DNA of 64,000 nucleotides from Bacteroidota bacterium (GCA_018267135.1 JAFDZA010000015.1:29402-93401), one strand, 5' to 3'. Positions 45,627-61,944 are shown, counted from the stretch's first letter. Numbers and translations are program-made. Notes: generated by a model from the sequence alone, not told the origin.

Positions 45627-47477
45627 TTACACAATGGCGCAAGCTCCACCCGCACAGGCGGCCTCTGCTTGCAAGTCGGTAGCATCATCGGGCTCATACA
45701 CCAAAGAAAGATCAATGTTCTTCAGTGATCTTTCCAGTTCTTCATAACGTTCTTCAGAGATATCTTCAAAGGGAGGCTGTTTATAGTTTCCACTATCAAA
45801 CGGAAGTACACTCAAACCATTATACGAGGCTTTGTTTTCCCACATCCATTCGCCTACTAATTCCCATTCGTGATTTTTAATGGATACCGTAGCCGAAACG
45901 TTGTTTGCATTATATCCTAATCGATATCCGCTGCGTACCCATTCCAGATTAAACGCTTTAATTCGTTCCAGCAAGTCCATTACACTTTCTGTGCGCAGGG
46001 TACTGCCCGAAGGTGCTTTTTGAGGGATGCAAACTATACCTTGCTTACTGTTCAAGAGATCATCTTCTATTAATTCGGGATGCCGGATTTTTAAATATTC
46101 GTATAGGGCTTCATTTTTCCCAATACGCATACGCCTTAAATAAAAATCGTTGTGCCAGGCGTGGATACCCGATGAAGTTCCTAACACGAGCGAGCTGGTG
46201 CCCGATGGTTTGATGGTAGTGCAGCGGGCTGCAAATTCAATATTAATTTTTTTCGAGATTACCGTGTTAATGTGCTTTACTTCGGCTGCGGCCTCCAGCA
46301 GATCTAATTTTGATACGCGGTTGCTGGCTATGCCTGTCATCCCCACGCCAATGAGTGCATCTTGCTCGGTGGTTTGTTTCCATACATCGCGCAGGTAGTG
46401 AAAATCAGTAAAGCCTGCTTGTAAGGTTCCGAGAAAACTGGCGGCACGTGCCCGCGCATTTAGTTCTTCCTGCGTTTCAACATCGGAAACATTTATTTCG
46501 CATAGATTGCAAAACTGAAACGGCCTAAGGGCTATTTCACAGCAGGGATTCGTGCCCCAGTCAATGTGGTTGCTGAAATAGAACCCCGGCTCTCCGGCAC
46601 CCGATAGTTCAATTTTTTTCCACAGGGATAAAAATTCTTCTTTGGTAGTGTGTTCCCTCGAAAGCACCGCTGAGTTATTGGCCCGGCCTCGTTGTTCGTT
46701 TAGTTCCCACCAGTTGCCAAACTTGCATGTAAGCATTTCTTCATCTCCCGGTGTGAATAACGAGATCATGGCAGATCTGCGTATGCCACCGGCCAGAACG
46801 GCATTGGCAATGTAGCACATGATGTCGTGGCACTCGAGGGGAGTAAGCCGTTCGCCATCTTTTTTTCGGTCTAACACGGCCACGAGGTGGGCGTGGCAAA
46901 CCTTTAACGGTTCGGGGCCGGGAGCTTTCCCTCCGGCCGTTACTAAACGGGCCCCTTTGGGGCGGACATCCGAATAATCAAAATCGGGGTGTGCATCGCT
47001 TTGGCCAAAGTTTGCTTTCATAATCATTTTGATGGAGTCGGCCCATCCTTCCAGGCTATCACCAATTAAAAAGCGTCTATGTTTAGTAGCCTTTTTTATG
47101 AGAGGAAGTTTGGCCACATGATGTTGCTGAACGGAAAAACCAACACCGGTACCTCCCAGTAACAAGAACATGGCTTCAGAAAATGCCCGGATGTCATCTA
47201 CCGGCATGTAGGCACAATTGTATATGCGGCTGTTGTTTTTTATGATGGGGGCTCCGGCAAATTGCATGGCACGCATGGAAGGGAGCACTTTTTTCTGATG
47301 AACAAATTGCATCACATCGTGTATCTCCTCGGTCATGTGTGGATATTTGGCCGCCATCATTGATTCGTAGCGGTCGCAGATTTCACTCCATAGCTCTCTG
47401 CGTTGTAATTCGGGTAGATAACGAGCGTATTTCATGTGGATGACAATGTCGCTCAGGATCTCTTGGTTTAGTTCCAT
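45627..47477 (-). CDS. nrdJ: Class II (adenosylcobalamin-dependent) ribonucleotide reductase, short monomeric type
   Basis: 616 aa; PSMRAMQFAG, YNCAY, active-site finger GTNPCCEI, TIKPSGT, C-terminal CAGGAC redox pair; no ATP cone seen. Confidence 0.9.
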   Translation of the reverse strand: MELNQEILSDIVIHMKYARYLPELQRRELWSEICDRYESMMAAKYPHMTEEIHDVMQFVHQKKVLPSMRAMQFAGAPIIKNNSRIYNCAYMPVDDIRAFSEAMFLLLGGTGVGFSVQQHHVAKLPLIKKATKHRRFLIGDSLEGWADSIKMIMKANFGQSDAHPDFDYSDVRPKGARLVTAGGKAPGPEPLKVCHAHLVAVLDRKKDGERLTPLECHDIMCYIANAVLAGGIRRSAMISLFTPGDEEMLTCKFGNWWELNEQRGRANNSAVLSREHTTKEEFLSLWKKIELSGAGEPGFYFSNHIDWGTNPCCEIALRPFQFCNLCEINVSDVETQEELNARARAASFLGTLQAGFTDFHYLRDVWKQTTEQDALIGVGMTGIASNRVSKLDLLEAAAEVKHINTVISKKINIEFAARCTTIKPSGTSSLVLGTSSGIHAWHNDFYLRRMRIGKNEALYEYLKIRHPELIEDDLLNSKQGIVCIPQKAPSGSTLRTESVMDLLERIKAFNLEWVRSGYRLGYNANNVSATVSIKNHEWELVGEWMWENKASYNGLSVLPFDSGNYKQPPFEDISEERYEELERSLKNIDLSLVYEPDDATDLQAEAACAGGACAIV

Positions 47478-47559
47478 GATGTAGTGGGTTTAGTTGAAGT
47501 TTAAAAAAATGATTACTCAGGTTGTTCATGTGCCGGGTATGAAAAGAGGTTATGTATAT

Positions 47560-49923
47560 CTATTCTGCTTCGGTTACGGAAATCACAGTTTTGGCACTTC
47601 TAACGAAGGCATGGCTTTGGCCATTTCCATTTACAGTAGTTTTCTGTGGTTTTAAATTTTTTCTACGCGAAAGAATAAACCAAGTAAGTGGAATAACGCC
47701 CCCCAGCACAAAAATGGACCCGCCTACAATGCGCATCCACGTAAGCGTTTGAAATGCCTGGCTGTCAATAAACTCACTGCTGCGGGCAAACCATAATCCT
47801 TTTTTTATTACCACGCTGATTTGTAATAACCCGGCTGGAAATAGATCGAGTAATACCATTAACAGCAAGCCGATGTTAATACTCCAAAAAGCTATTGTAA
47901 TTAATTTTGGATTCCACTTAGACGATGTAAACAGAAGTTGACAGCAAAACAGCACAGCGGCCAGCGACAAATTTCCATACACACCCATTAAGGCCGCATG
48001 GCCGTGGTTTACGGTTAAGTAGGTGCCGTGTTCATAGTAATTGGCAATCGGCAGGTTAATGATAAAACCTAACACACCGGCTCCAAAAAAATTCCAAAAA
48101 TTGACGGCTACCAAAAAAAGAAACACCTGCGGAAATCCAAACGATTGGAGAGAGGAGGAAGGAACATTACCACTTAGCTGCTTGGGTAATTTTCTAAACC
48201 GCCAGGCCTCCAGCGTTAATAAAATCAAAGGCACTACCTGTAACGTAGAAAATACCGAACCAAGTGCCATGGTGAAAACCGGCTTGGCATTCCAATAGAA
48301 ATTATGTGAAATGCCTAAGAGCCCCGATCCCAGAAAAAGAAGACAGGCAATATAGATTACTCGCGTGGCTGCCTGCACGCTGACTAAGCCCATCAGCACC
48401 ATAAAATATCCGATCAGCACGGTGGTAAATACTTCAAAGAAAGCTTCAGCCCACATATGGATCACCATCCACCGCCAGAAGTCGGCAATGACAAAGTTGG
48501 TTTGAGGATTAAATAAAAATCCGGATACTAATAATAACAAGATACAAGCTGTGGTGTACACCAGCCAGTTGGGCAATGCCCATGGTTGTTTAAGGCTGAT
48601 GACCGGCTTCAGGCCGCGATAGAGGATTATCACCCAGGTTAAAAACACACTATACAGAAGCACTTGCCAGATTTTACCAGGCTCAAGGTATTCCCACCCT
48701 TGGTGGCCCAACCAATACCACTTTTCACCGGCCAAACCTTTGGGGCCTATAAAAATTCCCACTAACCCACCGGCTACTAAAACAACGATCATAACAAACA
48801 GAGCATTTACCCATTTTACCTGATTTTTAGGCTGCGCCTGACAAAGCATAGGCATTACAAACAAAGAAGCTCCAATCCAACAGGCGGAGATCCACAACAA
48901 TGAAAGTTGCACATGCCAACTTCGGGTAATGGTTATAGGGAGGGGCTCGGATATGTTAAATCCAAAGAAATTAACAAAGCCTACGAAATCGTGTACAGTT
49001 AATATGCCTGCCAATACCTGAACTGAAAACAGAATGATTGCGGCAAAGAAAAATTTGTAAGTAGCCCGCTGCAGCTGGCTGGGCTGAAAGGAGGAAACAT
49101 CTTGCCGCGTCATAAGGGGTGCGGCATTTTTAGTAAAAGAGGAGTCATCCAGTTTTTCCAGTTTTCCGTGGTAATACAGCACCAGCCCCAGAACAAGAAC
49201 AAGACCCAATGATCCGATAATACTCCAGGTTATTACGGCTGTGCTGGGTGTGTTTCCGGCTGTGGGGTCATAAGGCCAATTGTGTGTGTAGCTGTAATCT
49301 TCACCGGGCCGTTCTACTCCGCACACCCAGCTCCCCCAAAAGAAAAATGCAGTAAGCGATCTTATTTCATCAGCTCCTTTCATATACCGGCCCGGCTTAC
49401 CCGAATTTTTCCCTTCTGCACTCAGGTATTCTTGCTGATAGTATTTCTCTAATTCTTTTCCTGCAAAAGATTGGGCATCGGTTAAAGTTACGGTATTGTT
49501 GCCCGATTGGTAAGTGTTTGATTTTATTTCACGCTTTACCATTTCAGCTATGCCGTAGCGTTGCAAGGTTTGGTCGCCTGCATCGGTAGCGATTGATTTC
49601 AGGTAATAGTCTTTCATGAAAAAGGTTACCTGGTGCAGGGCTTCAGCGGTGTAGTCTGGCCCCCGATTGGCGCCATCGCCAAACATAGAGCCATATTCCA
49701 TCAGCCCATATTTTTGAAATACCTGTTGCCCGCTCATGATGTCAGCCTGCGAGAACAAGGTAACTCCATCTGCACTTTTAAAATCAGGAATAGGGGGGGC
49801 TTCCGTATAGGTATGCAGGCCTATCTGGGTTACCCCCATCAGGCTGACTACAAAAATTACAGAGAGGGAGATCCACCAATTGCGCGGCTTCAATAAGGAA
49901 GCCACAAAATCTTGCTTTGCCAT
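47560..49923 (-). CDS. Quinol-type NO reductase family protein with NO-dismutase (Nod)-like substitutions
   Basis: qNor architecture (YGSMFGDG, RSWHVQL, HMWAEAFFE, HGH) but SHNFYW, STLQVVP and RIVGG replace canonical HH, LE and GD. Start ATG 49923 (TAAGTTTG promoter element covers the ORF-track TTG). Confidence 0.9.
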   Translation of the reverse strand: MAKQDFVASLLKPRNWWISLSVIFVVSLMGVTQIGLHTYTEAPPIPDFKSADGVTLFSQADIMSGQQVFQKYGLMEYGSMFGDGANRGPDYTAEALHQVTFFMKDYYLKSIATDAGDQTLQRYGIAEMVKREIKSNTYQSGNNTVTLTDAQSFAGKELEKYYQQEYLSAEGKNSGKPGRYMKGADEIRSLTAFFFWGSWVCGVERPGEDYSYTHNWPYDPTAGNTPSTAVITWSIIGSLGLVLVLGLVLYYHGKLEKLDDSSFTKNAAPLMTRQDVSSFQPSQLQRATYKFFFAAIILFSVQVLAGILTVHDFVGFVNFFGFNISEPLPITITRSWHVQLSLLWISACWIGASLFVMPMLCQAQPKNQVKWVNALFVMIVVLVAGGLVGIFIGPKGLAGEKWYWLGHQGWEYLEPGKIWQVLLYSVFLTWVIILYRGLKPVISLKQPWALPNWLVYTTACILLLLVSGFLFNPQTNFVIADFWRWMVIHMWAEAFFEVFTTVLIGYFMVLMGLVSVQAATRVIYIACLLFLGSGLLGISHNFYWNAKPVFTMALGSVFSTLQVVPLILLTLEAWRFRKLPKQLSGNVPSSSLQSFGFPQVFLFLVAVNFWNFFGAGVLGFIINLPIANYYEHGTYLTVNHGHAALMGVYGNLSLAAVLFCCQLLFTSSKWNPKLITIAFWSINIGLLLMVLLDLFPAGLLQISVVIKKGLWFARSSEFIDSQAFQTLTWMRIVGGSIFVLGGVIPLTWFILSRRKNLKPQKTTVNGNGQSHAFVRSAKTVISVTEAE

Positions 49924-49941: not shown

Positions 49942-49973
49942 CAAACTTAATAAAAGATAAATTAGTCCTGTAC
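49942..49973 (-). promoter_or_regulatory. Bacteroidota -7 element (49942-49949) plus adjacent putative Rrf2 operator (49950-49973)
   Basis: Minus-strand TAAGTTTG; ATAAAAGATA-AATT-AGTCCTGTAC shares 17 identical bp (GACTAATTTATCTTTTA, reverse strand) with the 53403 site. Confidence 0.7.
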
Positions 49974-50004
49974 TAAATCAAGCTATTTTTTTATTTTGAC
50001 AGGA

Positions 50005-51015
50005 TTATTTCAGCCAGCCGTTTTGTTTATACCAGGCAGCTGTTTCGCGAATGGCATCCGCTAAATGGTAGCGAGGCTGAAGGCGGGTTTCTTCCCATAC
50101 GGGGCGGCTGTTGCAAGCCCAATTAACGGCCGAGATTTCAGTCAGTTTTTCAGAGTTGAGGAACCGTGTGTTCCCCGAGTGTGCCAGCCATTTTTCATGA
50201 GTCTTAACAATAGCCTGCAAAGGTTTTAAGGGTACTGAAAGTCGTATTGTTCTTTTGTTTAGAGCCGATCGGATGATGCCGTTCAATTCTTCGTTGGTGT
50301 AGTGCTGCCCGTCCGAAACCAGAAATGTTTGGTTGGCTGCCGGCTCTTTAAGCAAGGTAATGGCGATGTGCGAAAAATCTTTTACATAAATGAGAGAGAG
50401 TATTTGCCGGTGGCTCCCCAGGGTAATCTCAAATCCATGGTTAATCATTTTAAACAATCGTAAAAAATCTTTATCACGCGGGCCAAAAACAGCGGTAGGT
50501 TTTAGAATGGTAGTAGGAAAATATCCGGATGATTTCACAAATTCTTCTGCCATTTTTTTACTCCGGGCATAAGCCGATACCGGGCACTCGTCATCCGTTA
50601 CGTCAATCGGCTTAAGTGTAATAGGGCAGCCCGGCCCATACGTAGCCAGCGAACTGATCAGCATGAAGCGGGTAAGCGGCATGGCCGTGCGATGCAGGGC
50701 CTTCATCAGGTTTTTTGTGTACAGACAATTTACCTCATAAAATTCATTTGGATGATGAGCAGAAGTAATGCCTGCATTATGAATGACATAGTCGAAAGAA
50801 CCATGTTGGATTTGAAAATCGGAAAGGGCTTTCGTCAACTCATCGGGTGCGGAGAGGTTCAGTTCAAGTAACTGAATATTGTATAGATTTAAAAATTCTA
50901 AACGGCTTGATTTCCGGATGCCGGCATAAACCTCAAGCCCCTGCCGGATAGCTTCTTCCACTAAAAAACTACCTATAAAACCGCTGGCTCCTGTGATAAG
51001 GATTTTCCGGCTCAT
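50005..51015 (-). CDS. NAD-dependent epimerase/dehydratase (extended SDR); candidate ceramide/3-oxoceramide reductase
   Basis: GASGFIG, HNAG, SSLA, YARSK (YxxxK); ATGA-coupled to the GNAT gene in an operon with spt. Confidence 0.75.
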   Translation of the reverse strand: MSRKILITGASGFIGSFLVEEAIRQGLEVYAGIRKSSRLEFLNLYNIQLLELNLSAPDELTKALSDFQIQHGSFDYVIHNAGITSAHHPNEFYEVNCLYTKNLMKALHRTAMPLTRFMLISSLATYGPGCPITLKPIDVTDDECPVSAYARSKKMAEEFVKSSGYFPTTILKPTAVFGPRDKDFLRLFKMINHGFEITLGSHRQILSLIYVKDFSHIAITLLKEPAANQTFLVSDGQHYTNEELNGIIRSALNKRTIRLSVPLKPLQAIVKTHEKWLAHSGNTRFLNSEKLTEISAVNWACNSRPVWEETRLQPRYHLADAIRETAAWYKQNGWLK

Positions 51016-52136
51016 CGAATTGACTTAAAATAACACCGCCTGCGTTTGTGCTGTTCTGTTTCAAAGTAATCCCACATGGCTTGCACTTTTGTATTTTTTT
51101 CCAACTCGGGATTGGTTTCGGCATATTCTACTCCGTGTTTAATGCACGATTTGGTTAGTTCATCAATAAGAATGGCGTTAACGCCTTTCCCCTGTAGATC
51201 GGGCCGTATGGCTACGATATACAAATCAATAATATTATTTTTTCGCAAGGCTTTAAGCAAATGAAAAATGCCAAACGGAAAAAGTTGGCCATTGGCTTTT
51301 TGCAGGGCTTTTGATAGGGAGGGCATGGTAATGCCAAAGGCAGCTAATTTTCCGTCATGGTCAGTAATGAGCGATACAAAATCTGTTTTGATGAATGAAA
51401 AGTATTGCTGTGTATAGTAATCGATTTGCTTATCGGTTAAGGGCACTACCCCAAACAGATCGGCATAGGTAATATTAATTAGTTGAAAGACATCTTTTGC
51501 GTAGGGTAAAACATCTTTGGCTCTGCGTAATTTTACCACTTGCAACTGGCATCGTTTTTTTACCAATGAAGCAATACGCTCTAAGTTTTCGGGTGGTTGT
51601 TTAGGAAGATGAATCAGGTACTCTACCCAGTCGGCCTCTTTTTGGTAGCCCATTTCTTCCATGTATTTTGGGTAGTAGGGATGGTTATAAATGGTAGCCA
51701 GTGTACCTACCCGGTCATACCCCTCTACCAGCATACCTTCGTGGTCTAAGTCGGTAAACCCCATGGGGCCGTGCACGGCTTCCATATTCATTTCGCGTGC
51801 CCACGATTCTACTTTGGCTAACAGTTCTTCAGCTACACCCCGGTCATCTACAAAATCAAACCATCCAAACCGCAAGTAATTTTTTTTCCATTTTTCAATA
51901 AAAGCATGGTTTAAGATGCCTGCTATACGCCCGGCTACCCGGCCGTTTTTATAAGCAAGCCAATACCGGGCTTCACAATAGTCAAATGCCGGGTTTTTTT
52001 CTTTGCGCAATGTATTGAGTTCGTCAAACTGCAAAGGAGGTACGTAATAAGGATTTCCCTTATACAAGTGGTATGGAAAATTAACAAAGTCTTTAAGTTC
52101 TTTAGAGGATGATACTTCTTTTACCAGTAAACTCAT
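51012..52136 (-). CDS. YghO-like GNAT-fold protein; candidate bacterial ceramide synthase
   Basis: FVNFPYHLY...YVPPL, RFGWFDF, VHGPMGFTDLD, YNHPYY motifs; 8 bp downstream of spt. Confidence 0.7.
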   Translation of the reverse strand: MSLLVKEVSSSKELKDFVNFPYHLYKGNPYYVPPLQFDELNTLRKEKNPAFDYCEARYWLAYKNGRVAGRIAGILNHAFIEKWKKNYLRFGWFDFVDDRGVAEELLAKVESWAREMNMEAVHGPMGFTDLDHEGMLVEGYDRVGTLATIYNHPYYPKYMEEMGYQKEADWVEYLIHLPKQPPENLERIASLVKKRCQLQVVKLRRAKDVLPYAKDVFQLINITYADLFGVVPLTDKQIDYYTQQYFSFIKTDFVSLITDHDGKLAAFGITMPSLSKALQKANGQLFPFGIFHLLKALRKNNIIDLYIVAIRPDLQGKGVNAILIDELTKSCIKHGVEYAETNPELEKNTKVQAMWDYFETEQHKRRRCYFKSIR

Positions 52137-52144
52137 AGCTACGG

Positions 52145-53362
52145 TTAGATGATTTCCAGTTTTCGGGAGATGGAATAGATTTTTGAAAGAGCACGGTCTA
52201 TTTGCTCAAAAGTGTGCGTGGCCATCAAACTGAACCGGATCAACGAACTATCGGAAGGCACCCCGGGCGAGCAAACCGGATTTACGAAAACACCTTCATT
52301 TAGCAACCGGATGGCTAACTGAAAAGTTTTTAAATCATCGCGCACATAGATGGGTATAATGGGAGTACAAGAGTGGCCCAGATCAAACCCCATTTGTTTT
52401 AAATTTTGTAAAGCATAGTGGGTGTTATCCCACAAACGCTCGATGCGTTCCGGTTCTCGTTTTATAATGTTCAGGGCTGCCCGGGCACTGGCTGCGGCAG
52501 GGGGCGATATACTGGCGCTAAACATGAGCGACCGGGCATGATGTTTCAAAAAATTGATAACTGATTTATCGGCCGCAATAAACCCTCCGATGGAAGCCAA
52601 TGATTTGCTGAAGGTGCCCATGATTAGATCTGTCTTTCCGGTCAGGCCAAAATGCGAAGCTGTGCCGCGGCCGCCTTGCCCGATTACGCCCAGTGCATGG
52701 GCATCGTCTACCATGATGTTTGCCCCGTACTGCTCGGCCAGCTTTGCTATTTCCGGCAGATTGGCAATATCGCCATCCATGCTGAAAATCCCATCCACTA
52801 CGATCAATTTAATTCGATCGTCATCGTGCGATTGCAAAATTTTTTCGAGCGAAGCCATGTCGTTATGCTTAAACTTCAGCGTTTTACTGAAACTCAGACG
52901 GCTCCCTTCAATAATGGATGCATGGTCTAACTCATCCAGAATTAAACAATCGTGGCGGTTCAGTAGTGCGGGAATCACCCCAATGTTTACCTGAAAGCCC
53001 GTGCTAAAAACTAAAGCAGCCTCTTTACCCACAAACTCGGCCAGTTGCTCCTCCAAATCAAGATGAATGTCTAAAGTACCGTTTAAAAAGCGTGAGCCGG
53101 CACAGCCTGTGCCATATAGACGAACCGCTTCATTGGCAGCCCACTTTACTTCCGGATGGTTGGTAAGCCCCAAATAACTGTTAGAACCGAACATAAGAAC
53201 CGGTTTTCCGTCAATCATCACTTCCGTGTCCTGATCCGACTCAATCACCCGAAAATAGGGGTAAAGCCCAAGCCGTTTCAGATTATCGGGCAAATCAAAA
53301 TCGGTGGCTCGCTGCACCAGCCGGTTCTTCCGGGTAGCCGGGCTTTTCAATAAAGTGTTCAT
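52145..53362 (-). CDS. spt: Serine palmitoyltransferase (alpha-oxoamine synthase family)
   Basis: GLYPYFRVIESDQDTEV, MFGSNSYLGLT, DHASII, DDAH, PLP lysine in GTFSKS; N-terminus resembles Bacteroidota SPT rather than BioF. Confidence 0.8.
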   Translation of the reverse strand: MNTLLKSPATRKNRLVQRATDFDLPDNLKRLGLYPYFRVIESDQDTEVMIDGKPVLMFGSNSYLGLTNHPEVKWAANEAVRLYGTGCAGSRFLNGTLDIHLDLEEQLAEFVGKEAALVFSTGFQVNIGVIPALLNRHDCLILDELDHASIIEGSRLSFSKTLKFKHNDMASLEKILQSHDDDRIKLIVVDGIFSMDGDIANLPEIAKLAEQYGANIMVDDAHALGVIGQGGRGTASHFGLTGKTDLIMGTFSKSLASIGGFIAADKSVINFLKHHARSLMFSASISPPAAASARAALNIIKREPERIERLWDNTHYALQNLKQMGFDLGHSCTPIIPIYVRDDLKTFQLAIRLLNEGVFVNPVCSPGVPSDSSLIRFSLMATHTFEQIDRALSKIYSISRKLEII

Positions 53363-53390
53363 GAATTTATTTTTTTATGTAAAAAACAGT

Positions 53391-53426
53391 CAAAAATAAA
53401 TAATAAAAGACTAATTTATCTTTTAA
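53391..53426. promoter_or_regulatory. Divergent promoter: spt -7 element (53391-53398, minus) and putative Rrf2 operator (53403-53426)
   Basis: Minus-strand TATTTTTG; palindrome ATAAAAGACT-AATT-TATCTTTTAA. Confidence 0.7.
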
Positions 53427-53480
53427 ATATTAGAATTTAATTTGCACCTGAATTAGGCTTAATTTTTTAGGCAGGATAGT

Positions 53481-53864
53481 ATGAAAATTTTTGCTGGTTG
53501 TTTAATTGTTTCGTTTTCTGTTTACTCGGCCGTGATCTATTGGCTGCCGAATACGGAAGCAGCTATGCTCCCTAAGGCGGTTGCCGGAAAAATGGTATGG
53601 CAACAAAAAAACTGTGTGGCATGCCATCAGATTTACGGATTAGGCGGCTTCTTGGGGCCGGATTTAACGAACGTATATTCGGGTAAAGGGCCTGATTATA
53701 TAAAAGCTTTTGTGCAGGCAGGCACTATTACGATGCCCGCCTTTAATCTGACAGACGAGGAATTGGAAAACCTAACATCTTTTTTGCAACAGGTGGATGC
53801 CTCAGGATACTCTGATCCCCGAAAACACAAAATAAATTTTGATGGAACAATTGAAAGAAAATAA
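53481..53864 (+). CDS. NorC-like membrane-anchored monoheme cytochrome c
   Basis: One N-terminal TM helix, GKMVWQQKNCVACHQIYGLGGFLGPDLT, distal MP. Confidence 0.85.
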   Translation: MKIFAGCLIVSFSVYSAVIYWLPNTEAAMLPKAVAGKMVWQQKNCVACHQIYGLGGFLGPDLTNVYSGKGPDYIKAFVQAGTITMPAFNLTDEELENLTSFLQQVDASGYSDPRKHKINFDGTIERK

Positions 53865-55227
53865 ACTGCCCCCCCCCAAACGCCTGATTATTACCGGTAT
53901 GGTAATGTTGGTAGTGGGTATGTTTTTTGGTGTGATAGGAAGTTTGCAATATGTTAGCCCGGGCTTATGGAAGAGTATTTTATCCTTTGATAAAGTAAGA
54001 CCGCTCCATGTTTCGTCTATTGTATTTTGGATATTGCTGACGGCCTCGGGAGGGGTGCTCACTTATGCCGGTGAATATGCAGGACGCCTTTTTTCTACGC
54101 GCTTATCCCAATTTCAATGGCTCTTTTTTTTAGTGGCTATAGTAGCCATCGGTATTAGTTATGTAAACGGAGTTTTTGGCGGCCGGGAGTATTGGGAGTG
54201 CCCGCCCATACTGGCTCTCTTTGTTGTTGCCGGTTGGCTGCTGTTTGCCATCAATATTATTGGCACCCTCCGCACATTAAAAAATCAACCGGTATATGTC
54301 TGGATGTGGCTTACGGGAGCTGTTGGATTTTTACTTATTTTTTTAGAATCCTATTTATGGCTGCTGCCGTATTTTCAGCAAACTATTGTGCGTGATATGA
54401 CGGTGCAGTGGAAATCGTATGGCTCGATGGTAGGTTGTTGGAATATGCTGATTTACGGATCGGGTATATTTCTTATGGAAAAAATCAGTTGCGATCAATC
54501 GTATGCTCGTTCGCGCATTGCTTTTGTCCTTTTTTTTCTTGGACTGATAAATCTGATGTTTAACTGGAGCCATCACATTTATATATTGCCTATTCAGCCT
54601 GTAATTAAGCATATCGGCTATTTAATCAGCATGACCGAGCTGTATATTTTAGGGCGTATTATTTATAAATGGAAAGAATCGTTGAGCTCTGTTCAAAAGT
54701 ATAAACACTTACTTGCTTTTCGTTTTTTATCGACAGCCGATGTATGGGTTTTTATTAATCTTGGGTTGGCTATCCTTATGTCGGTACCGGCCGTAAATCT
54801 ATACACGCATGGCACGCACATTACAGTGGCACATGTTATGGGCACTACCATTGGCATTAATTCTATGATTTTGATGGCCGTTGTTGTAGATGTGTTGGAG
54901 GGCACGTGCCTTAGCTTAGCCGCGATGCGCAATCGTATTTCAACTTGGCTGCTGGTGGCCAACGTTGCGCTCGTTGTTTTTTTTGGTTCGTTAATTACAG
55001 CCGGGGTATTGCGGGCACGCTGGCAGATGAGTAACCAAACCATTCCGTTCGGAGAAATGATGAAAGGACTTGCTCCCTATTTTGTTATTTTTTCTATTTC
55101 AGGCATTATTCTGTTTGTCTGTTTTTTTGCTATGGTTTTCCTTGTATTGAAAAGTACACTAAGTTGTTATTTTTACCGATCCTCCGTTCAGGAAGTGCGC
55201 CTAAAATCGCAGTGGCAATTAAAATGA
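53842..55227 (+). CDS. Atypical heme-copper oxidoreductase subunit I (NorB-like) with non-canonical metal ligands
   Basis: About 12 TM; RPLH, GREYWE, NWSHH, MTE and HGTHITVAHVMG motifs; helix VI reads QWKSYGSMVGCWN with no His. Confidence 0.82.
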   Translation: MEQLKENKLPPPKRLIITGMVMLVVGMFFGVIGSLQYVSPGLWKSILSFDKVRPLHVSSIVFWILLTASGGVLTYAGEYAGRLFSTRLSQFQWLFFLVAIVAIGISYVNGVFGGREYWECPPILALFVVAGWLLFAINIIGTLRTLKNQPVYVWMWLTGAVGFLLIFLESYLWLLPYFQQTIVRDMTVQWKSYGSMVGCWNMLIYGSGIFLMEKISCDQSYARSRIAFVLFFLGLINLMFNWSHHIYILPIQPVIKHIGYLISMTELYILGRIIYKWKESLSSVQKYKHLLAFRFLSTADVWVFINLGLAILMSVPAVNLYTHGTHITVAHVMGTTIGINSMILMAVVVDVLEGTCLSLAAMRNRISTWLLVANVALVVFFGSLITAGVLRARWQMSNQTIPFGEMMKGLAPYFVIFSISGIILFVCFFAMVFLVLKSTLSCYFYRSSVQEVRLKSQWQLK

Positions 55228-55655
55228 TATCGGTTACTAAAATATTCCGTTTTGAAGCGGCTCATGCCATCTATGCTTACCCGGGGCCGTGTGGCCATAT
55301 TCATGGCCATTCGTATGAGTTACACGTTACCGTTAGTCATCGGCATTATGAAAATAAATACTTGGAAGGGCAGGGGATGATTATTGATTTTAAGGAATTG
55401 AAAAAACGGGTGATGGTGAATGCCATTGATATGCTGGATCACAAACTGATTTTGTCAGACACCTTTCTGAGTCATTCTACTCAAACTTTCGATACAAATC
55501 AATTGGTAATTTTTCCGGTTGAGCCTACGGCCGAGAATATGCTGATTTTTTTGCGCGACCGAATTTCGGCAGTATTACCCGATGAAATTTTATTAGATTC
55601 ACTGAAGTTGTGGGAAACACGAGATTCCTATGCCACCTGGACAACCGATGTGTGA
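55224..55655 (+). CDS. queD: 6-carboxytetrahydropterin synthase (PTPS/QueD family)
   Basis: FEAAH, CGHIHGHSY (CxxxHGH), IDFKELK, PTAEN, LWET; ATGA overlap with the upstream gene. Confidence 0.85.
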   Translation: MISVTKIFRFEAAHAIYAYPGPCGHIHGHSYELHVTVSHRHYENKYLEGQGMIIDFKELKKRVMVNAIDMLDHKLILSDTFLSHSTQTFDTNQLVIFPVEPTAENMLIFLRDRISAVLPDEILLDSLKLWETRDSYATWTTDV

Positions 55656-55663
55656 AGTTCGCT

Positions 55664-56128
55664 TCATCTTATCATCCCTTTCATGTTTCCAAGTTTGTAG
55701 TTTTTTAAATAGGTTTTCCCTTTTACAAACTCGTCTCTCAATTCCTGAATTGTCTTTTTAAGCAGAATATCGCGCAACCGGGTTTTGCTTTCTTTTACTT
55801 GCCAATGTACCGGGCACGGAAAGGTATCGGAACACTCCTTTAATCCTAACACACAAGATTTTAATATATCGGTGCCATCAATGGCTTTCACGATAGAATT
55901 CAGCATAATAGGTTTGGCTTTGGGTTTGACATAAAAGCCGCCATTGGGACCTTTTGAGGAAGAGATAATTTTCTCGCGTACCAGAGTTTGAAGAATTTTG
56001 GCAGTAAACGATTGGGGCGAATCAGCCTCTCTCGCAATTTCTTTTACACTTAGCTTGGCACCATCGGCACTGCGTATAACAATGTATAATACTGCCCGAA
56101 TAGCATACTCGCATGCTCTTGAAAACAT
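55664..56128 (-). CDS. Rrf2-family transcriptional regulator (three Cys)
   Basis: MFSRACEYAIRA, SSKGPNGGF, CVLGLKECSDTFPCPVH. Start moved to ATG 56128. Confidence 0.92.
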   Translation of the reverse strand: MFSRACEYAIRAVLYIVIRSADGAKLSVKEIAREADSPQSFTAKILQTLVREKIISSSKGPNGGFYVKPKAKPIMLNSIVKAIDGTDILKSCVLGLKECSDTFPCPVHWQVKESKTRLRDILLKKTIQELRDEFVKGKTYLKNYKLGNMKGMIR

Positions 56129-56207
56129 AGACCGTTGGATTAAGAATAGATGGGTTCTCCCCGAAAGATAAAAATAACTTCCAAGAATATTCCCATACCG
56201 CAAAAGG

Positions 56208-58013
56208 TTAAGATACTTCTACTTTGGGCATCATTATTTCATACTCTTGGTGCAGTCGCTTTTCAGCCAGATCTATTCCATTTCTGATTCGGTTTTTAAG
56301 CTCATTTTTAAAGTCAACCCCAGCTATAAGTTCCCGGTAATAAAGTATGCCGTTCGAAATGTTTTGATATACATTTTGCACATATTTTACAGCCTTTTCA
56401 TCGAAAGTTTTGTGTGTCTTTTCAATAAGCTCTACGAGGTAGTCAATGTAGAGTGAAAGTTCCTTCACAAACATATTGGGACGCTTAGGGTCAGTAGGAA
56501 TGCCTACTTTCCCATAGATATGGTCGAGCATTTCCTTTAGTGAAACAATTTTTGAGAAGTAAGCAATATTAGGCCCCGGGCAAATATCTACCGATTCCAG
56601 TTTTTTAATGGGCTTCAGTTCATATTTTTTAATGGCTGCGTTGCTCAAACCGATGCAGAGACACTCTTTATCCAGTACGTCCTTTTTTTGCCGCTGAAAT
56701 TCTTCTTCGGGCAGGTTGAGCGAATGAAGCTGCTCCAATTTTTTCTTTTGATAGGTATGCGATGCCGTGCAAATAGGCTCGGTGGTAAATTCTGTGTTAG
56801 ACACTAAATATTTTTCGGTGCAAGGGCTTCCCGGTTTTCCTTTTTTTATACGTTCAAATTTTTCCAATTCGCCCGAGGTCCCTTTCAGGTAATGGAACCG
56901 AATACCCAGCGGTGAGTTTTTACTTAAAAAAACATCTTGTTCGGTAGCCCGGCTCAGCAGATTCAGAGTTGAGTCGTCAACGGTGGTTGCCTCGGGCACC
57001 AGTAAAAAGGGGGTTCCCCAGCCGGTGCTGTTTACCCCATAGTAGCTTCTCAGAAACTGATCTTCATCAGCTGTGCCTATGCCTCCCTGAACAGAGATAT
57101 GAATAGATGGGGCATAGGGCAATTGCCTTTTACCTTTTGTATGTAGTGCCTGATTGTACAGATTAAATAATTCACGGATTAACTCCTGACGTTTCAATTT
57201 GAATTCTTCCAAAATAGGCCCTATTAGATACCCATCGGTAGCAAAGGCATGCCCCCCGCAGTTTAAGCCGGATTCTATTCTAAACTCACTAACCCAAAGA
57301 CCCTTTTTGGCCAGCATTTTACCCTGCACATAGGCCGAACGGAAATCAGAAACTTTAATGATAATTTTTTTATCGAATACCCCGTTCGTGTCGGCATCAA
57401 ATGCCGAAAGTGTTTCCATGTAGTTGAACAGCCGAAGGTTTAGCCCGGCCGAGAGAACCACTGAAGAGTGGGAGAGGGTACTTTTAGCATATCCCCTAAG
57501 AGCGGTTACGGCATCGGACCCGTTTTCGATAACGTTTCCGTTGACATCTTTTGTATTCCGGTCCAGTTTAGTCATAATATTTACATCAATACTTCCGGCT
57601 ACGATTTGTCTGCGCAGCCACTGACTCAACTGTTCTTTTTTTTGGGGTTCAGTGGTGGTAGTCATTTGCCGGTAAACCCGATAAAGCCAACTGCTGCCCG
57701 GCTGCATTTCAAAATATTTATCTATTTCTAAACTTTCTCCGAACGGTTGTTTTTTAAGTTGCTCTATTTGCTCGGATACCATTCGCTGCACCAGATTTAA
57801 GTAATCCGTTATGCGTTTGGCCCGGTAATCTGCTTCTTTTGAAGAGATGGGGTAATAGTTTTCCTTTTTTAAGTGGTAATAATACCCTCTCATTTTTTCA
57901 ATAAGATTATCTTCGATAATTGACATTACCGATGAAATACCAAATCGAGCCACCTTTACGGGAGTGTCAATAGTGTAAGCCAGCCCCATTACCGGAATAT
58001 GAAACGAATGCAT
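56208..58013 (-). CDS. Uncharacterised protein with nitronate monooxygenase/FabK-like flavin-barrel motifs and a Cys-rich C-terminus
   Basis: ESGLNCGGHAF, VQGGIGT and GWGTPFL resemble EGxxAGGH, AGGI and GTRF; Cys in PCTEKYL, PICTAS, ECLCIGL, ICPGPN. Start ATG 58013. Confidence 0.6.
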   Translation of the reverse strand: MHSFHIPVMGLAYTIDTPVKVARFGISSVMSIIEDNLIEKMRGYYYHLKKENYYPISSKEADYRAKRITDYLNLVQRMVSEQIEQLKKQPFGESLEIDKYFEMQPGSSWLYRVYRQMTTTTEPQKKEQLSQWLRRQIVAGSIDVNIMTKLDRNTKDVNGNVIENGSDAVTALRGYAKSTLSHSSVVLSAGLNLRLFNYMETLSAFDADTNGVFDKKIIIKVSDFRSAYVQGKMLAKKGLWVSEFRIESGLNCGGHAFATDGYLIGPILEEFKLKRQELIRELFNLYNQALHTKGKRQLPYAPSIHISVQGGIGTADEDQFLRSYYGVNSTGWGTPFLLVPEATTVDDSTLNLLSRATEQDVFLSKNSPLGIRFHYLKGTSGELEKFERIKKGKPGSPCTEKYLVSNTEFTTEPICTASHTYQKKKLEQLHSLNLPEEEFQRQKKDVLDKECLCIGLSNAAIKKYELKPIKKLESVDICPGPNIAYFSKIVSLKEMLDHIYGKVGIPTDPKRPNMFVKELSLYIDYLVELIEKTHKTFDEKAVKYVQNVYQNISNGILYYRELIAGVDFKNELKNRIRNGIDLAEKRLHQEYEIMMPKVEVS

Positions 58014-58034
58014 TTTTTTATTTTTTTGAACATG

Positions 58035-58073
58035 CAAAGATACAATAAAAGATAATTTTATCCTTTATTTTTG
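58035..58073. promoter_or_regulatory. Divergent promoter pair flanking a putative Rrf2 operator (58045-58068)
   Basis: Minus -7 TATCTTTG (58035-58042), plus -7 TATTTTTG (58066-58073), palindrome ATAAAAGATA-ATTT-TATCCTTTAT. Confidence 0.72.
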
Positions 58074-58103
58074 CAAAAACAAAAACAGATTAAGATAAAG
58101 GAG

Positions 58104-58763
58104 ATGGAGAACAAACAAAATGGAGAGGTACTACAAACTACGAAAGAAGAGATAGCCAATACTGTAACTCATGGTTTGGCCATTGCTTTGAGCCTGGTAG
58201 GGGCCGTTTTTATCTATCATTGGCTAGCCGCTGATCCGGGTTCTGGTTGGCGAAAATGGTTTTCGGGCAGCGTTTACCTGTTATCGCTTATTATTTTATA
58301 TACAGCTTCTACTCTATACCATGCTGTAAATAACCTTAAATGGAAGCAATTCTTGCGCATAGGCGACCACAGTGCTATTTATATTAAAATAGCCGGTACC
58401 TACACTCCTTTCCTTCTTTTGGCATTTCCGTTAAGTAAAGGCTTGCCGTGGCTTGTGTTTTTATGGGTATTGGCCGGAGCCGGAATTGCCTTTAAAGTTT
58501 TTTTCACAAAGCGCTTTAGTGCCATTTCCGTGCTATTGTATTTGTTTATGGGCTGGACGGCCTTGTTTATGATTCACTCGCTGTACACGGCTGTTTCTTC
58601 TCCTGTATTTTGGTGCATCTTGGTGGGTGGACTTTTTTTCACATCCGGCTTACTTTTCTTTTTTGCTAAAAAAATACCTTATCATCATTCCATCTGGCAC
58701 CTATTCGTTATGACCGGCAGTGCGTTTCATTATGCCGGAATCTTTATGCTTTTTTTTAACTGA
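58104..58763 (+). CDS. Hemolysin III / PAQR (TrhA-like) membrane protein
   Basis: EEIANTVTHG, STLYH, DHSAIY, IAGTYTP, HSIWHLFV; AAGGAG just upstream of ATG 58104. Confidence 0.92.
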   Translation: MENKQNGEVLQTTKEEIANTVTHGLAIALSLVGAVFIYHWLAADPGSGWRKWFSGSVYLLSLIILYTASTLYHAVNNLKWKQFLRIGDHSAIYIKIAGTYTPFLLLAFPLSKGLPWLVFLWVLAGAGIAFKVFFTKRFSAISVLLYLFMGWTALFMIHSLYTAVSSPVFWCILVGGLFFTSGLLFFFAKKIPYHHSIWHLFVMTGSAFHYAGIFMLFFN

Positions 58764-58834
58764 TCGCACTCGATTGCAAAACTGATTTCTGTAAATTTTT
58801 TTACTTTATTTTCATCTTCGCCCTTTAAACAAAA

Positions 58835-58881
58835 ATAAAAGTATGTAAATACTTTTATTAAAGACAATCGCTGTATATTTG
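58835..58881 (+). promoter_or_regulatory. Perfect palindromic putative Rrf2 operator (58835-58858) and -7 element (58874-58881) of the ric operon
   Basis: ATAAAAGTAT-GTAA-ATACTTTTAT (perfect 10-4-10); TATATTTG. Confidence 0.78.
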
Positions 58882-58900: not shown

Positions 58901-59857
58901 ATGAATACCGCACAAGAAAATATTCTGAATGTAACCTTGCTGGAGCCCCGGATGAAGCATCCTACTATTTTCGCCTATTTCGACCGGCTAAACGGAAGCG
59001 AAACCCTAACCATTTTAAACGACCACGACCCCAAACCGTTGTATTATCAATTACTGGGTGAGAGGGGAAATATATTTAGCTGGGAATATGCCGAGCAGGG
59101 CCCCGAACAATGGCGTGTGCGAATTAGCAAACATAAAACAGGTGGCTCCGAAGAAACCCTGGGCCAATTGGCTACACACGATTTGCGCAAAGCGCAGGTT
59201 TTTAAAAAATACGGACTCGATTTTTGCTGCGGTGGAAAGAAAACTGTAAAACAAGCCTGTGCTGAAAAAGGCATTGATGTATCGGTAGTAGAAACCGAAC
59301 TGCAGCAAGCCGAACGGCAGGCAGCTCCCTCCACGCGTCCACTGGCTTACCATGAATGGAAGTTAGATTTTTTAGCCGACTACATCGTGCAGGTGCACCA
59401 TAGTTACATCAAAAAAAATTTACCTATTATTATAGACTTAACGCATAAAGTAATGGCACGACACGGCCATGCGCACACTGAGTTAGGCCGGGTGCATGAG
59501 TTGGTAGAAGCAATACGAGCCGAATTGCTTGAACATCTGCAAAAGGAAGAACAAATTATCTTCCCATTTATTAAGTCGCTCGCTTTGGCCTCCGGCTCTT
59601 CTAAGGAATTTTCGGCTCCGGCCGGTACGGTGCACACCCCGGTAAAGACGATGGAAAAAGAACATGAAAGGATAGGAAAATATTTAGAAGAGCTTCGTGC
59701 AGCAACTGATCAATACACCGCTCCGGCTGATGCTTGTGCTTCGTACAATATGCTGTATCGCTTGTTGGCAGAGTTTGAAGAAGATATGTTACAGCACATT
59801 CATCTGGAAAACAATATTCTTTTTCCTAAAGCGATAGAGATGGAGCAGACTGTTTAA
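58901..59857 (+). CDS. ric: Iron-sulfur cluster repair di-iron protein (Ric/YtfE/ScdA) with extra N-terminal DUF2249 domain
   Basis: NDHDPKPL (DUF2249), GLDFCCGG (ScdA_N), hemerythrin-like HH...H..KEE..FP...HIHLENNILFP. Confidence 0.92.
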   Translation: MNTAQENILNVTLLEPRMKHPTIFAYFDRLNGSETLTILNDHDPKPLYYQLLGERGNIFSWEYAEQGPEQWRVRISKHKTGGSEETLGQLATHDLRKAQVFKKYGLDFCCGGKKTVKQACAEKGIDVSVVETELQQAERQAAPSTRPLAYHEWKLDFLADYIVQVHHSYIKKNLPIIIDLTHKVMARHGHAHTELGRVHELVEAIRAELLEHLQKEEQIIFPFIKSLALASGSSKEFSAPAGTVHTPVKTMEKEHERIGKYLEELRAATDQYTAPADACASYNMLYRLLAEFEEDMLQHIHLENNILFPKAIEMEQTV

Positions 59858-59866
59858 CTTTGATGT

Positions 59867-60682
59867 ATGGCTACCATTAATGCGCGCACCAAAATAGCCG
59901 CGATACTCAAAGCAAACCCCGAAGCGCTGGAGGCAATCGTCAGTATTTCGCCTCACTTTAAAAAACTTCGCAATCCGGTGCTGAGAAAGATACTGGCTTC
60001 GCGTGCCACCCTGCAAATGGCCAGTAAGCTGGGAGGCTGCCGGGTAGAAGATTTTTTTGAAAAACTACGACCGCTCGGGTTTGAGATAGATGAGATGCCG
60101 TCCTCTCAGGAACACAAGAACGAAGGGCCACCTCCCGCTTTTATGAATGACCTGCGCCTAAAACAAATAACCGAACTGGACGTGCGCCCGGTAATGGAGG
60201 CCGGACAAGACCCCTTCAAAATAATTTCAGAAAAAATAAAACAACTGGAGCCGGGGCAGGTATTAAAACTTATCAATAGTTTTGAACCAGTGCCGTTGAT
60301 TGAATTGCTGGCTAAACAAGGTATTGAGAGCCATGTAGAGTTTGCAGACGAAAACTGTGTAGTTACGTATTTTAATAAAACATCCCGGTCGGTTCCTCAC
60401 AATGAAAAAGTGGCTATATCCAATCAATCAACCTGGAACGAGACACTTCACCGGTTTGAAGGAAAATTGCAATATGTGGATGTCCGCTCATTAGAAATGC
60501 CTTTGCCCATGTTCACTATTTTAGATGAACTAACAAAACTTCCCACGGGATATGCTTTGTTTGTTTATCATAAACGGGTGCCTGTATTTTTGCTGCCCGA
60601 ACTCCAGCAGAGAGGATTTAAGTATTTGATTTTGGATATCAGCGAAGCAGAAGTTCACCTGTTGATATTCCATTCGATATGA
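59867..60682 (+). CDS. DUF1858 + tandem DUF2249 domain protein
   Basis: N-terminal KIAAILK...FKKLRNP; LDVRPVMEAGQDPF and VDVRSLEMPLPM repeats. Confidence 0.75.
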   Translation: MATINARTKIAAILKANPEALEAIVSISPHFKKLRNPVLRKILASRATLQMASKLGGCRVEDFFEKLRPLGFEIDEMPSSQEHKNEGPPPAFMNDLRLKQITELDVRPVMEAGQDPFKIISEKIKQLEPGQVLKLINSFEPVPLIELLAKQGIESHVEFADENCVVTYFNKTSRSVPHNEKVAISNQSTWNETLHRFEGKLQYVDVRSLEMPLPMFTILDELTKLPTGYALFVYHKRVPVFLLPELQQRGFKYLILDISEAEVHLLIFHSI

Positions 60683-61944
60683 TCATGACCGATATTCCTG
60701 TTAAAACTACCCATGCACGAGTAATTATTCCTTTTTATGTATATGCCGGTATTAGTTTTTTAGCTGCATCCATCACCCTCCTGTTTTCTACCGAGGCTTT
60801 TCATAAACACTATTTTCATCCACATCTGTTGGCCATCACACATCTGATGGCTATTGGTTGGGGTACCATGATCATTATGGGAGCCAGCTACCAGTTGGTG
60901 CCGGTAGTGGCCGAGGGAAAACTGTATAGCGATAAACTGGCGTATGCTTCTTTTGTGTTGGCAGCCGTGGGGTTGCCTTTATTGGTTATTAGTTTTTTTG
61001 AATTTGATATGGGCTCACCGGCCAAGTGGGGTGGGCGTTTGCTGGCCCTCTCCGTTATCTGTTACCTCTTCAATATTGGCAAAACCATTGTGCGAGGAAA
61101 AAGTGAAAATGTGCATGCTACTTTTATTTTTACTGCGGTGGTTTGGCTTTTAATCACTTTCCTTTTTGGGTTGGCATTAGTTTATAATTTTACCTACCCG
61201 ATATTCCCGCATGATTCCATACACTATCTTCCGCTGCACGCCCATGCCGGAGTAGTGGGGTGGTTTTTGTTGCTTGTTATGGGGGTAGGCTCGCGCCTTA
61301 TTCCTATGTTTTTAATTTCGAAATACACTAATGCCCGTTTGTTATGGATCATTTATTATTGCCTTAACGGAGCATTGATCAGCTATATATTCATTTTTTA
61401 TTTTGCCGAAACAAAAGTACTTATTTTCGGCCCCGGGGTATTGCTGCTGTTGTCCATAGTTTTATTTGTGGTGTATTGTTTACGTGCCTACCATGCGCGA
61501 TTACGCAAACAAGTAGATGCCCAGATGAACGTTTCTATGCTTTCGGTGTGGATGATGGGCATTCCGGTTATCCTGTTATTTGCTATCATCGTATCGGTAA
61601 TCGTTACCAAACAGGAGAACATCTCTCTAGTTTTAGCCTATGGGTTTATGATTTTTTTCGGATGGATTACGGCCATCATTCTTGGTATGACATTTAAAAC
61701 CTTACCCTTTATAGTGTGGAACCAAATTCGTCATCGCTATACGCCCGAAAAATTACCCAGCCCCAAAGATCTGGTTCATTCATTTTTATTTCGAATGATG
61801 TCTGTCTGCTATCTGGCCGGATTTATTTTGTTTGCTGTCGGTATACTCTGGCCCTACTCATTACTGCTGCCGGGAGGAGCTTGCTTGTTAGTATTCGCAG
61901 CCGTTTTTTATAATTTAAACGTGTTGAAAATTGTTACGCATTAA
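60679..61944 (+). CDS. 12-TM membrane protein, NnrS/heme-copper oxidase subunit I-like
   Basis: Three-fold internal repeat ending YQLVPV, SRLIPMF, FKTLPF; intramembrane His in THLMAIGW and LHAHAG. Confidence 0.6.
   Translation: MIMTDIPVKTTHARVIIPFYVYAGISFLAASITLLFSTEAFHKHYFHPHLLAITHLMAIGWGTMIIMGASYQLVPVVAEGKLYSDKLAYASFVLAAVGLPLLVISFFEFDMGSPAKWGGRLLALSVICYLFNIGKTIVRGKSENVHATFIFTAVVWLLITFLFGLALVYNFTYPIFPHDSIHYLPLHAHAGVVGWFLLLVMGVGSRLIPMFLISKYTNARLLWIIYYCLNGALISYIFIFYFAETKVLIFGPGVLLLLSIVLFVVYCLRAYHARLRKQVDAQMNVSMLSVWMMGIPVILLFAIIVSVIVTKQENISLVLAYGFMIFFGWITAIILGMTFKTLPFIVWNQIRHRYTPEKLPSPKDLVHSFLFRMMSVCYLAGFILFAVGILWPYSLLLPGGACLLVFAAVFYNLNVLKIVTH

Follow-up and report, generated by a model that had tools for sequence, protein, structure and literature searches.

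Two classes of palindromic candidate operators and their likely Rrf2-type regulators in a nitrogen oxide gene island of a Bacteroidota genome

The window analyzed here is a 64,000-nucleotide stretch of DNA from a Bacteroidota bacterium (GCA_018267135.1 JAFDZA010000015.1:29402-93401; C6:29402-93401 in our numbering, in which G, C, and L denote genomes, contigs, and loci). Between positions 49942 and 58881 it carries four 24-bp palindromes at the promoters of a nitrogen oxide gene island that also encodes two Rrf2-type regulators, Rrf2a and Rrf2b. A preliminary description of this DNA had treated the palindromes as a single recurrent element with two 10-bp arms and a 4-bp spacer, marking a candidate Rrf2 regulon. 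We found that the palindromes are in statistical excess over AT-rich background, recur at orthologous promoters of other genomes, lie in a defined position relative to promoter boxes, and pair by class with separate groups of Rrf2 proteins. It is likely that all four are operators of dimeric iron-sulfur (Fe-S)-type Rrf2 factors that form a Bacteroidota-specific subfamily with two specificity classes. The Rrf2 regulon suggested in the preliminary description was thus supported, but the sites split by their inner core into two classes instead of one: a GTA type, ATAAAAGTAT-N4-ATACTTTTAT (site 4), and a GA type, ATAAARGAYAA-N2-TTRTCYTTTAT (sites 1 to 3).

The four palindromes and the five TAnnTTTG boxes previously assigned to them were all present exactly as described (Table 1). 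Their symmetry varies, with 5/10, 7/10, 9/10, and 10/10 matching arm positions for sites 1, 2, 3, and 4, respectively. The 10-4-10 arrangement is therefore perfect at site 4, as originally described, but site 1 is only half a palindrome when that arrangement is read strictly.

The 3.41-Mb source genome contains six copies of ATAAAAG-N10-CTTTTAT with one mismatch or none, and three of these lie within 5.5 kb at this locus. All 3.41 Mb were scanned with two symmetric matrices, which were built solely from sites at orthologous promoters of other genomes, with the 89%-identical relative L004 excluded. Site 4 ranked first genome-wide with the GTA-type matrix at 36.1 bits (runner-up, 20.4 bits), and sites 3, 2, and 1 occupied the first three ranks with the GA-type matrix at 32.2, 30.3, and 21.4 bits, respectively (runner-up, 19.0 bits). 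For the background, the entire intergenic DNA of the genome (252 kb, 36.6% GC) was shuffled 200 times with dinucleotide composition preserved. Matches of at least 20 bits were expected 0.03 and 0.08 times in the shuffles for the GTA and GA matrices, compared to 2 and 3 observed. The top shuffled score was 26.7 bits, so sites 2 to 4 exceed anything that AT-rich background yields. The outer arms by themselves (ATAAAAG/CTTTTAT, at most one mismatch) showed no enrichment in 26 related genomes relative to the reversed pattern, which served as the control. They were rejected as a stand-alone signature for this reason, and the signal consists of the arms plus the inner core. A sigma-70 promoter scan was uninformative for this phylum, with 32 promoters found versus 32.9 expected.

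Both classes recurred upstream of orthologous genes in other genomes. For site 4, ATAAAAGTA-N6-TACTTTTATT was invariant in 7/7 aligned ric promoters (Ric identity of 58 to 89%), whereas the remaining intergenic DNA had diverged; a TAnnTTTG box followed 14 to 15 bp past the GTA site in these promoters. The site was kept in position in the 20 related genomes found, down to approximately 48% Ric identity, and a GTA-type site preceded the operon in all 15 Rrf2b-encoding genomes, as well as in the near relative L004. The exact GTA pattern was present in 2 of the 201 family genomes sampled (the source genome and one other), in both cases 60 to 70 bp upstream of ric. Loci for long, DUF2249-fused Ric had a strong palindrome 50 to 95 bp upstream in 10 of 11 cases, in contrast to 1 of 18 loci for short Ric (sample of 401 phylum genomes). 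A GTA-type site also preceded nirK in L005; this locus is the sole source of the link, because nirK is absent from the source genome.

GA-type sites were found upstream of genes for quinol nitric oxide reductases (qNOR) or NOD-like proteins in L005, L008, and L115. The first two share the geometry of site 1 (ATAAAAGATAAATATATCCTATGT in L005, with a 1-bp gap to the −7 box, and AAGGACAAATTTATCCTT in L008). The site before unk609-Rrf2a was likewise present in L120 (29.1 bits) and in L005 (23.1 bits, separated from the −7 box by 0 bp). Further GA-type sites preceded genes for cytochrome c (cyt c) and an atypical heme-copper oxidase (HCO), with or without a PTPS gene (L119, 30.9 bits; L060 to L062), as well as ric-Rrf2a-like genes (L049, L051, L067, and L117), cyt c-nosZ (L049, L051, and L116), and a hemN-ctaA-ric-unk609 operon (L056). 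In G849 (L120), which lacks cyt c-HCO, the serine palmitoyltransferase (spt) operon lies beside PTPS-Rrf2a-unk609, and a GA-type site of 15.9 bits abuts the spt −7 box. The sphingolipid operon thus appears to be a target in its own right, not a bystander of the divergent promoter, with evidence beyond this window coming from that one moderately distant genome. A GA-type operator at spt-GNAT-SDR both here and in G849 suggests that sphingolipid synthesis is under control responsive to nitric oxide (NO).

Both local regulators belong to the Rrf2 family. Rrf2a and Rrf2b scored 76.8 and 72.2 bits, respectively, with Pfam Rrf2 (PF02082; cutoff, 30); with TIGR00738 (cutoff, 73.3), Rrf2a passed at 80.0 and Rrf2b fell just under at 64.4. 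A profile of 12 sequences aligned over approximately 130 residues with the structure chains of RsrR, IscR, NsrR, and CymR (E values of 4.5e-11 to 1e-6), which predicts an N-terminal winged helix-turn-helix and the Rrf2 dimer fold. C93, C100, C106, and H109 (Cys-x6-Cys-x5-Cys-x2-His) did not vary among the 12 aligned sequences of the a-like and b groups. As judged by sequence, this is the ligand pattern of cluster-binding Rrf2 proteins, with the three cysteines that the Fe-S subgroup (NsrR/IscR/RirA type) has in its C-terminal half. A nearly invariant Cys (C7 in Rrf2b) was also seen in the alignment one residue before the position of Glu8, the trans cluster ligand of RsrR; Asp8 of NsrR presumably aligns there as well. 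The partner subunit could contribute Cys7 as a fourth cluster ligand, in competition with His109.

Operator class and regulator type went together. In a maximum-likelihood tree of 26 Rrf2 proteins, the 15 GTA-associated proteins formed one clade with 100/100 support. Every member of this Rrf2b clade is encoded at the end of a ric operon with a GTA-type site upstream (15/15), and every Rrf2a-like protein with a site of its own falls outside the clade and pairs with the GA type (9/9), both being raw counts in which shared ancestry is ignored. The remaining two nonclade proteins are an unlinked paralogue on contig C15 without a site and, in G435, a divergent Rrf2 that shares a GTA-containing intergenic region. 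When the loci were extended, GA-type sites were present in every locus in which the neighboring Rrf2 was more like Rrf2a. Genomes with a single b-type Rrf2 (G243, G461, and G851) had the GTA site only, those with a-like Rrf2 only (G575 and G207) had GA-type sites before ric, and those carrying both types showed both operator classes. The recognition helix reads N/S-E-H-T-V-G-K-I/L-L-Q in the b group versus P-x-x-F-T-A/G-K-I-L-Q in the a group, and helix 1 differs too. Aligned to IscR, the positions that differ between the groups correspond to those which we take to be base contacting in the IscR-DNA structure.

Transcription start maps place the flavobacterial sigma-A TAnnTTTG box at −12 to −5 (PMC9723704), and such boxes adjoin every site in the window. 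GA-type operators were located either 0 to 5 bp from the box (qNOR, spt, and unk609 here; also L005, L056, and L119) or 12 to 18 bp from it. GTA-type operators were mostly 11 to 16 bp away (11 sites with gaps in this range). With the box set at −12 to −5, the operators span approximately −13 to −41 or −27 to −51, which includes the spacer and the −33 element. The repressor-like geometry noted in the preliminary description was thus upheld, in that the operators abut the −7 boxes or lie 11 to 16 bp upstream of them. Four operators can serve six transcription units because site 3 overlaps the hlyIII −7 box and site 2 lies between two divergent promoters.

We propose that Rrf2b, encoded by the last gene of the ric operon, most likely binds the GTA class (site 4) and that Rrf2a, encoded just downstream of unk609, most likely binds the GA class (sites 1 to 3); clade membership and helix sequence make this assignment a probable one. 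The ric operon would be autoregulated, because Rrf2b ends the operon that site 4 precedes. Rrf2a is probably transcribed from the site 3-controlled promoter and is probably autoregulated as well, because its gene follows unk609 after 76 bp, no terminator-like site was found in the gap, and the gene order is conserved in four genomes (L004, L005, L119, and L120). Each operator is predicted to extend over the −33 region and the spacer of one or two sigma-A promoters, so that a cluster-bound dimer would block RNA polymerase; we accordingly expect repression, with good but not full confidence, rather than activation. Damage to the Fe-S cluster by NO, or its nitrosylation, would release the dimer and switch on qNOR with the class II ribonucleotide reductase (RNR), cyt c-HCO-PTPS, unk609-Rrf2a, hlyIII, the spt operon, and the ric operon. 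Judging from the target genes, NO acting on the cluster is the signal that we somewhat favor. The pairing of class with regulator and the conserved sites support an Rrf2 regulon over six transcription units, as had been suggested.

Several observations weigh against this interpretation. The score of site 1 (21.4 bits) is by itself expected in approximately 8% of shuffled intergenic sets, so it is not decisive, and the case for this site comes from conservation. The training sites of the matrices were chosen partly by their likeness to the pattern in the window, which makes the matrix test not fully independent. The source genome encodes two more Rrf2 paralogues, on C15 and C9; the recognition helix of the former is a-like (SPEAFTAKIL), and this protein could bind GA sites too. 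The argument for NO comes from target-gene content only, because neither protein reaches the equivalog cutoff for NsrR or IscR. The center of the GTA operator, at approximately −39, is also a binding place of class II activators. Finally, the motif is missing from most cyt c-HCO orthologues in other families, and the regulon is therefore lineage limited.

TABLE 1 Candidate operators, promoter boxes, and target units in the window
Feature	Position	Strand	Sequence	Remarks
Site 1, GA-type candidate operator	49950-49973		ATAAAAGATAAATTAGTCCTGTAC	Abuts −7 box of NOD-like qNOR promoter
Site 2, GA-type candidate operator	53403-53426		ATAAAAGACTAATTTATCTTTTAA	Between divergent spt and cyt c-HCO operons
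Site 3, GA-type candidate operator	58045-58068		ATAAAAGATAATTTTATCCTTTAT	Between divergent unk609(-Rrf2a) and hlyIII
Site 4, GTA-type candidate operator	58835-58858		ATAAAAGTATGTAAATACTTTTAT	Perfect 10-4-10, upstream of ric operon
−7 box, qNOR (and class II RNR) unit	49942-49949	−	TAAGTTTG	0-bp gap to site 1
−7 box, spt-GNAT-epimerase operon	53391-53398	−	TATTTTTG	4-bp gap to site 2
−7 box, unk609	58035-58042	−	TATCTTTG	2-bp gap to site 3
−7 box, hlyIII	58066-58073	+	TATTTTTG	Overlaps last 3 bp of site 3
−7 box, ric operon	58874-58881	+	TATATTTG	15-bp gap after site 4
Candidate −7-like box, cyt c-HCO unit	53438-53445		TAATTTGC	11 bp beyond site 2; our own reading
Target unit 1	45627-49923	−		NOD-like qNOR 47560-49923 (Pfam COX1 + NorB_cytochrome_c-like), then class II RNR 45627-47477 (Pfam Ribonuc_red_lgC/RNR-II_ins_dom)
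Target unit 2	50005-53362	−		spt 52145-53362, GNAT 51012-52136, NAD-dependent epimerase/SDR 50005-51015
Target unit 3	53481-55655	+		Cytochrome c 53481-53864, atypical HCO/NOR-like 53839-55227, PTPS/QueD-like 55224-55655 (Pfam Cytochrome_CBB3, COX1, PTPS)
Target unit 4	55664-58013	−		unk609 56208-58013, then Rrf2a 55664-56131 after 76 bp (Pfam Rrf2, 2.2e-21)
Target unit 5	58104-58763	+		hlyIII, hemolysin III family membrane protein (Pfam HlyIII, 6e-32)
Target unit 6	58901-62715	+		Ric with N-terminal DUF2249 58901-59857, DUF1858/DUF2249 protein 59867-60682, COX1-like membrane protein 60679-61944, DUF59/FeS_assembly_P 61956-62276, Rrf2b 62278-62715 (Pfam)

As judged by NCBIfam models, the local Rrf2 proteins are not orthologues of NsrR or IscR, which the preliminary description gave as examples of the family. 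They scored 29.9 and 29.7 bits with the NsrR model NF008240 (cutoff, 182) and 47.6 and 41.2 bits with the IscR model TIGR02010 (NF008110; cutoff, 207.55), and both were also far under the NCBIfam cutoffs for RirA and the SUF regulator. The motif differs as well from the classical 19-bp NsrR operator gATGyAT-N5-ATrCATc, which has odd spacing and was derived from an NsrR set without Bacteroidetes (PMC1274295). With the NsrR of Proteobacteria, Bacilli, and Streptomyces the system shares the Rrf2 fold, three conserved cysteines, and an AT-rich palindromic operator overlapping promoters of NO detoxification and denitrification genes (ric/ytfE/dnrN, nnrS-like, nirK, and nor). The GTAT...ATAC inner core of the GTA type also resembles that operator (PMC1274295). 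On the other hand, the operator here is 24 bp long, is evenly spaced (10-4-10), and has new A-rich outer arms; hmp is not part of the regulon here, two paralogues have separate operator cores, and the promoters appear to be of the Bacteroidota −33/−7 type. Regulon content is that of an NsrR-type system, with qNOR/NOD-like, cyt c-HCO, and ric operon genes here and nirK and nosZ in relatives. That the system works like NsrR yet stands outside the NsrR orthologous group, as a Bacteroidota-specific two-operator switch, is a well-founded comparative prediction.

Likeness to IscR extends to the Rrf2 fold, the C...C...C-x2-H pattern, autoregulation within its own operon, and an operator of approximately 25 bp. 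However, one IscR reads two motifs by cluster state, whereas here two proteins appear to read two motifs. RsrR of Streptomyces venezuelae (6HSD/6Y45), a [2Fe-2S] Rrf2 protein with palindromic sites, was the best solved-structure match to the profile (4.5e-11), with the matches to RsrR, IscR, and NsrR being about equal. RsrR takes Cys/Cys/Glu/His ligands from two subunits, and its regulon, unlike the one predicted here, is unrelated to NO.

These likenesses bear on the question of whether the regulators sense Fe-S supply, oxygen, or redox state, as IscR or RsrR does, and not NO specifically. The C-x6-C-x5-C-x2-H pattern resembles the 3Cys/1His set that ligates the IscR cluster, RsrR is the best structural-sequence match, and the Rrf2b operon includes a DUF59 Fe-S assembly protein. 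The targets, however, are NO reductase-type enzymes, Ric, nirK, and nosZ, and the genome-wide top matches to the motif included no isc or suf operon. We therefore regard Fe-S or redox sensing as rather unlikely, although it deserves more weight than any other alternative.

It could also be argued that all four sites are read by one and the same Rrf2 protein, be it Rrf2a, Rrf2b, or the unlinked paralogue on C15, with the GA and GTA cores representing tolerated degeneracy, or that cross talk is extensive. Both classes share the outer arms ATAAAAG/CTTTTAT, the helix of the C15 paralogue is a-like, and an orthologous C15-type cluster in G850 (L114) has a 34.3-bit GA site before its own Rrf2 gene. 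We consider this improbable given that clade and core pair perfectly (15/15 and 9/9), genomes with one paralogue show one class only, and the recognition helices are consistently different. The C15 cluster itself (G000 C15:7446-11016) is headed by the third Rrf2 and contains truncated-globin-like, tryptophan-dioxygenase-like, short Ric, and cupredoxin-like genes, names which, except for Ric (tblastn match), were read by eye from N-terminal sequences. Neither a GA nor a GTA motif was found upstream of this second ric locus.

We similarly doubt that the Rrf2 proteins bind but activate, or act dually, at some promoters. The idea applies above all to the GTA operator near −39, since GTA sites lie 11 to 16 bp upstream of the −7 box, which places the operator at approximately −27 to −51. 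IscR is a known dual regulator, and apo-IscR activates at suf. Nevertheless, the right arm of the operator covers the position of the −33 element, activation is not possible from GA sites that lie only 0 to 5 bp away from the −7 box, and autoregulated NO stress operons under Rrf2 proteins are typically repressed, as with NsrR (PMC1274295). Chance AT-rich matches, or generic promoter elements without a dedicated regulator, would fit the low GC content of the intergenic DNA and the unremarkable frequency of the outer arms in related genomes, but they are practically refuted by scores of sites 2 to 4 above all shuffles, by symmetric conservation of both arms while the flanks diverge, and by recurrence of the sites at orthologous promoters in different families, each time together with an Rrf2 gene.

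Rrf2 genes are known to accompany clade II nosZ clusters of Bacteroidetes, as a matter of gene adjacency only, with no operator, regulon, or paralogue classes (PMC6264515); the GA-type sites before cyt c-nosZ in L049, L051, and L116 are in keeping with this association. A search of the open literature returned remarks on Rrf2/nos gene adjacency only and no described operator of this kind. More tentatively, a phylum-specific pair of Rrf2 sensors may split the nitrogen oxide response by a 2- to 3-base core difference (GTAT versus GAYA) read by a diverged recognition helix, with the GA branch also controlling clade II nosZ in some lineages and, unexpectedly, the spt operon and class II RNR in this one. 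If so, NO exposure would reprogram membrane lipids and deoxynucleoside triphosphate supply besides detoxification, and the apparent wiring of sphingolipid synthesis and B12-dependent RNR into the switch would be a new physiological lead. Bacteroidota are major NO and N2O consumers in soils, sediments, and wastewater via clade II nosZ and NOD-like qNOR, and regulation of these genes is essentially undescribed. The operator pair, with its assigned regulators, offers a switch that can be tested directly for the expression of NO reductase, of ric, and of nosZ in some lineages, and it allows regulon prediction in any Bacteroidota genome. It also provides a natural system for studying how DNA specificity diverges among paralogous Rrf2 proteins.

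The source genome has 43% GC, and its closest public relatives are Chitinophagaceae-like metagenome-assembled genomes. The nitrogen oxide gene island occupies 45.6 to 62.7 kb of the window, with a clade II-type nos cluster immediately upstream. Genes for RNR and qNOR are adjacent in L005 too. The spt product scored 668 bits with NCBIfam NF047600 (SerpalmtaseCFB; cutoff, 640), and unit 2 was also typed with Pfam. The gene order of the ric operon was kept in L004 to L009, L043 to L048, L050, L054, and L055, and the divergent unk609/hlyIII pair, together with its site, was kept in L004 and L005. Pfam and NCBIfam searches gave no match for unk609 (601 amino acids). This gene travels with ric, forming ric-unk609 operons in family f31 (L029, L036, L041, and L056 to L058) and ending the ric operon in L050, and it also travels with Rrf2a; it probably encodes an uncharacterized NO stress protein. 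Besides nosZ and a NOD-like qNOR, the source genome carries three or more other HCO-family operons; a copper nitrite reductase domain (nirK) was not found anywhere in it. The organism looks like an NO/N2O consumer rather than a full denitrifier.

Additional candidate sites were evaluated. A weak fifth match at 56161 to 56184 (CCGAAAGATAAAAATAACTTCCAA), listed in the preliminary description as preceding Rrf2a, has the sequence given there but scored −5.9 bits. It was rejected, being unconserved in L005, L119, and L120 and already mutated in the 89%-identical relative L004. Two GA-like sites in the source genome each lie upstream of a further HCO operon with atypical active-site motifs. One, at C9:171033-171056 (17.5 bits), precedes a CoxII/HCO/SCO1 operon and was rejected, since only the near-identical relative G848 retains it and the G853 orthologue has none. 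The other, at C5:186949-186972 (16.7 bits; ATACAGGATAATATTGTCCTGTAT), reads TTACAGGATAATTTTATCCTGTAT in G848, so that the palindrome is retained despite three substitutions; no orthologue more distant than G848 was found. Its half-site TACAGGAYAA also accounts for the poorly matching right arm of site 1. C4:54829 and C5:147959 were rejected as GA sites, their neighbors not being NO related. A palindrome at C22:223449-223472 (L001:5001-5024; ATAAAAGTATCTAATACCTTTTAT) has perfect outer arms and a shifted or broken inner core and scored 20.4 bits. The near relative G848 has the identical sequence. This palindrome falls between genes of an Rhs/YD-repeat toxin-immunity-like locus and may be due to chance.

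Outside the source genome, L118 (G379:C2:60435-72458) contains GA-type sites of 30.8 and 25.2 bits upstream of genes that, typed from N-terminal sequence alone, appear to encode a tryptophanase and a hemerythrin-like or DGC-domain protein plus a U32 peptidase. If these labels are right, the G379 regulon extends past nitrogen oxide genes. Upstream of cyt c/nosZ at 38534 to 41028 in the window, no site of at least 9 bits was found, though relatives carry GA sites there. Positions 38388 to 38412, which precede the cyt c-nosZ cluster, contain an inverted repeat, GTCATA-TCTACG-TATGAC. In other families, cyt c-HCO can have a palindrome reading TATGAC-N4-GTCATA or TATGAT-N4-ATCATA upstream (L063, L065, and L069), and several cyt c-HCO loci of other families sit behind genes that look Crp/Fnr type, as judged by C-terminal sequences. 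These TATGAC-type palindromes may belong to a different, second regulator of nitrogen oxide genes.

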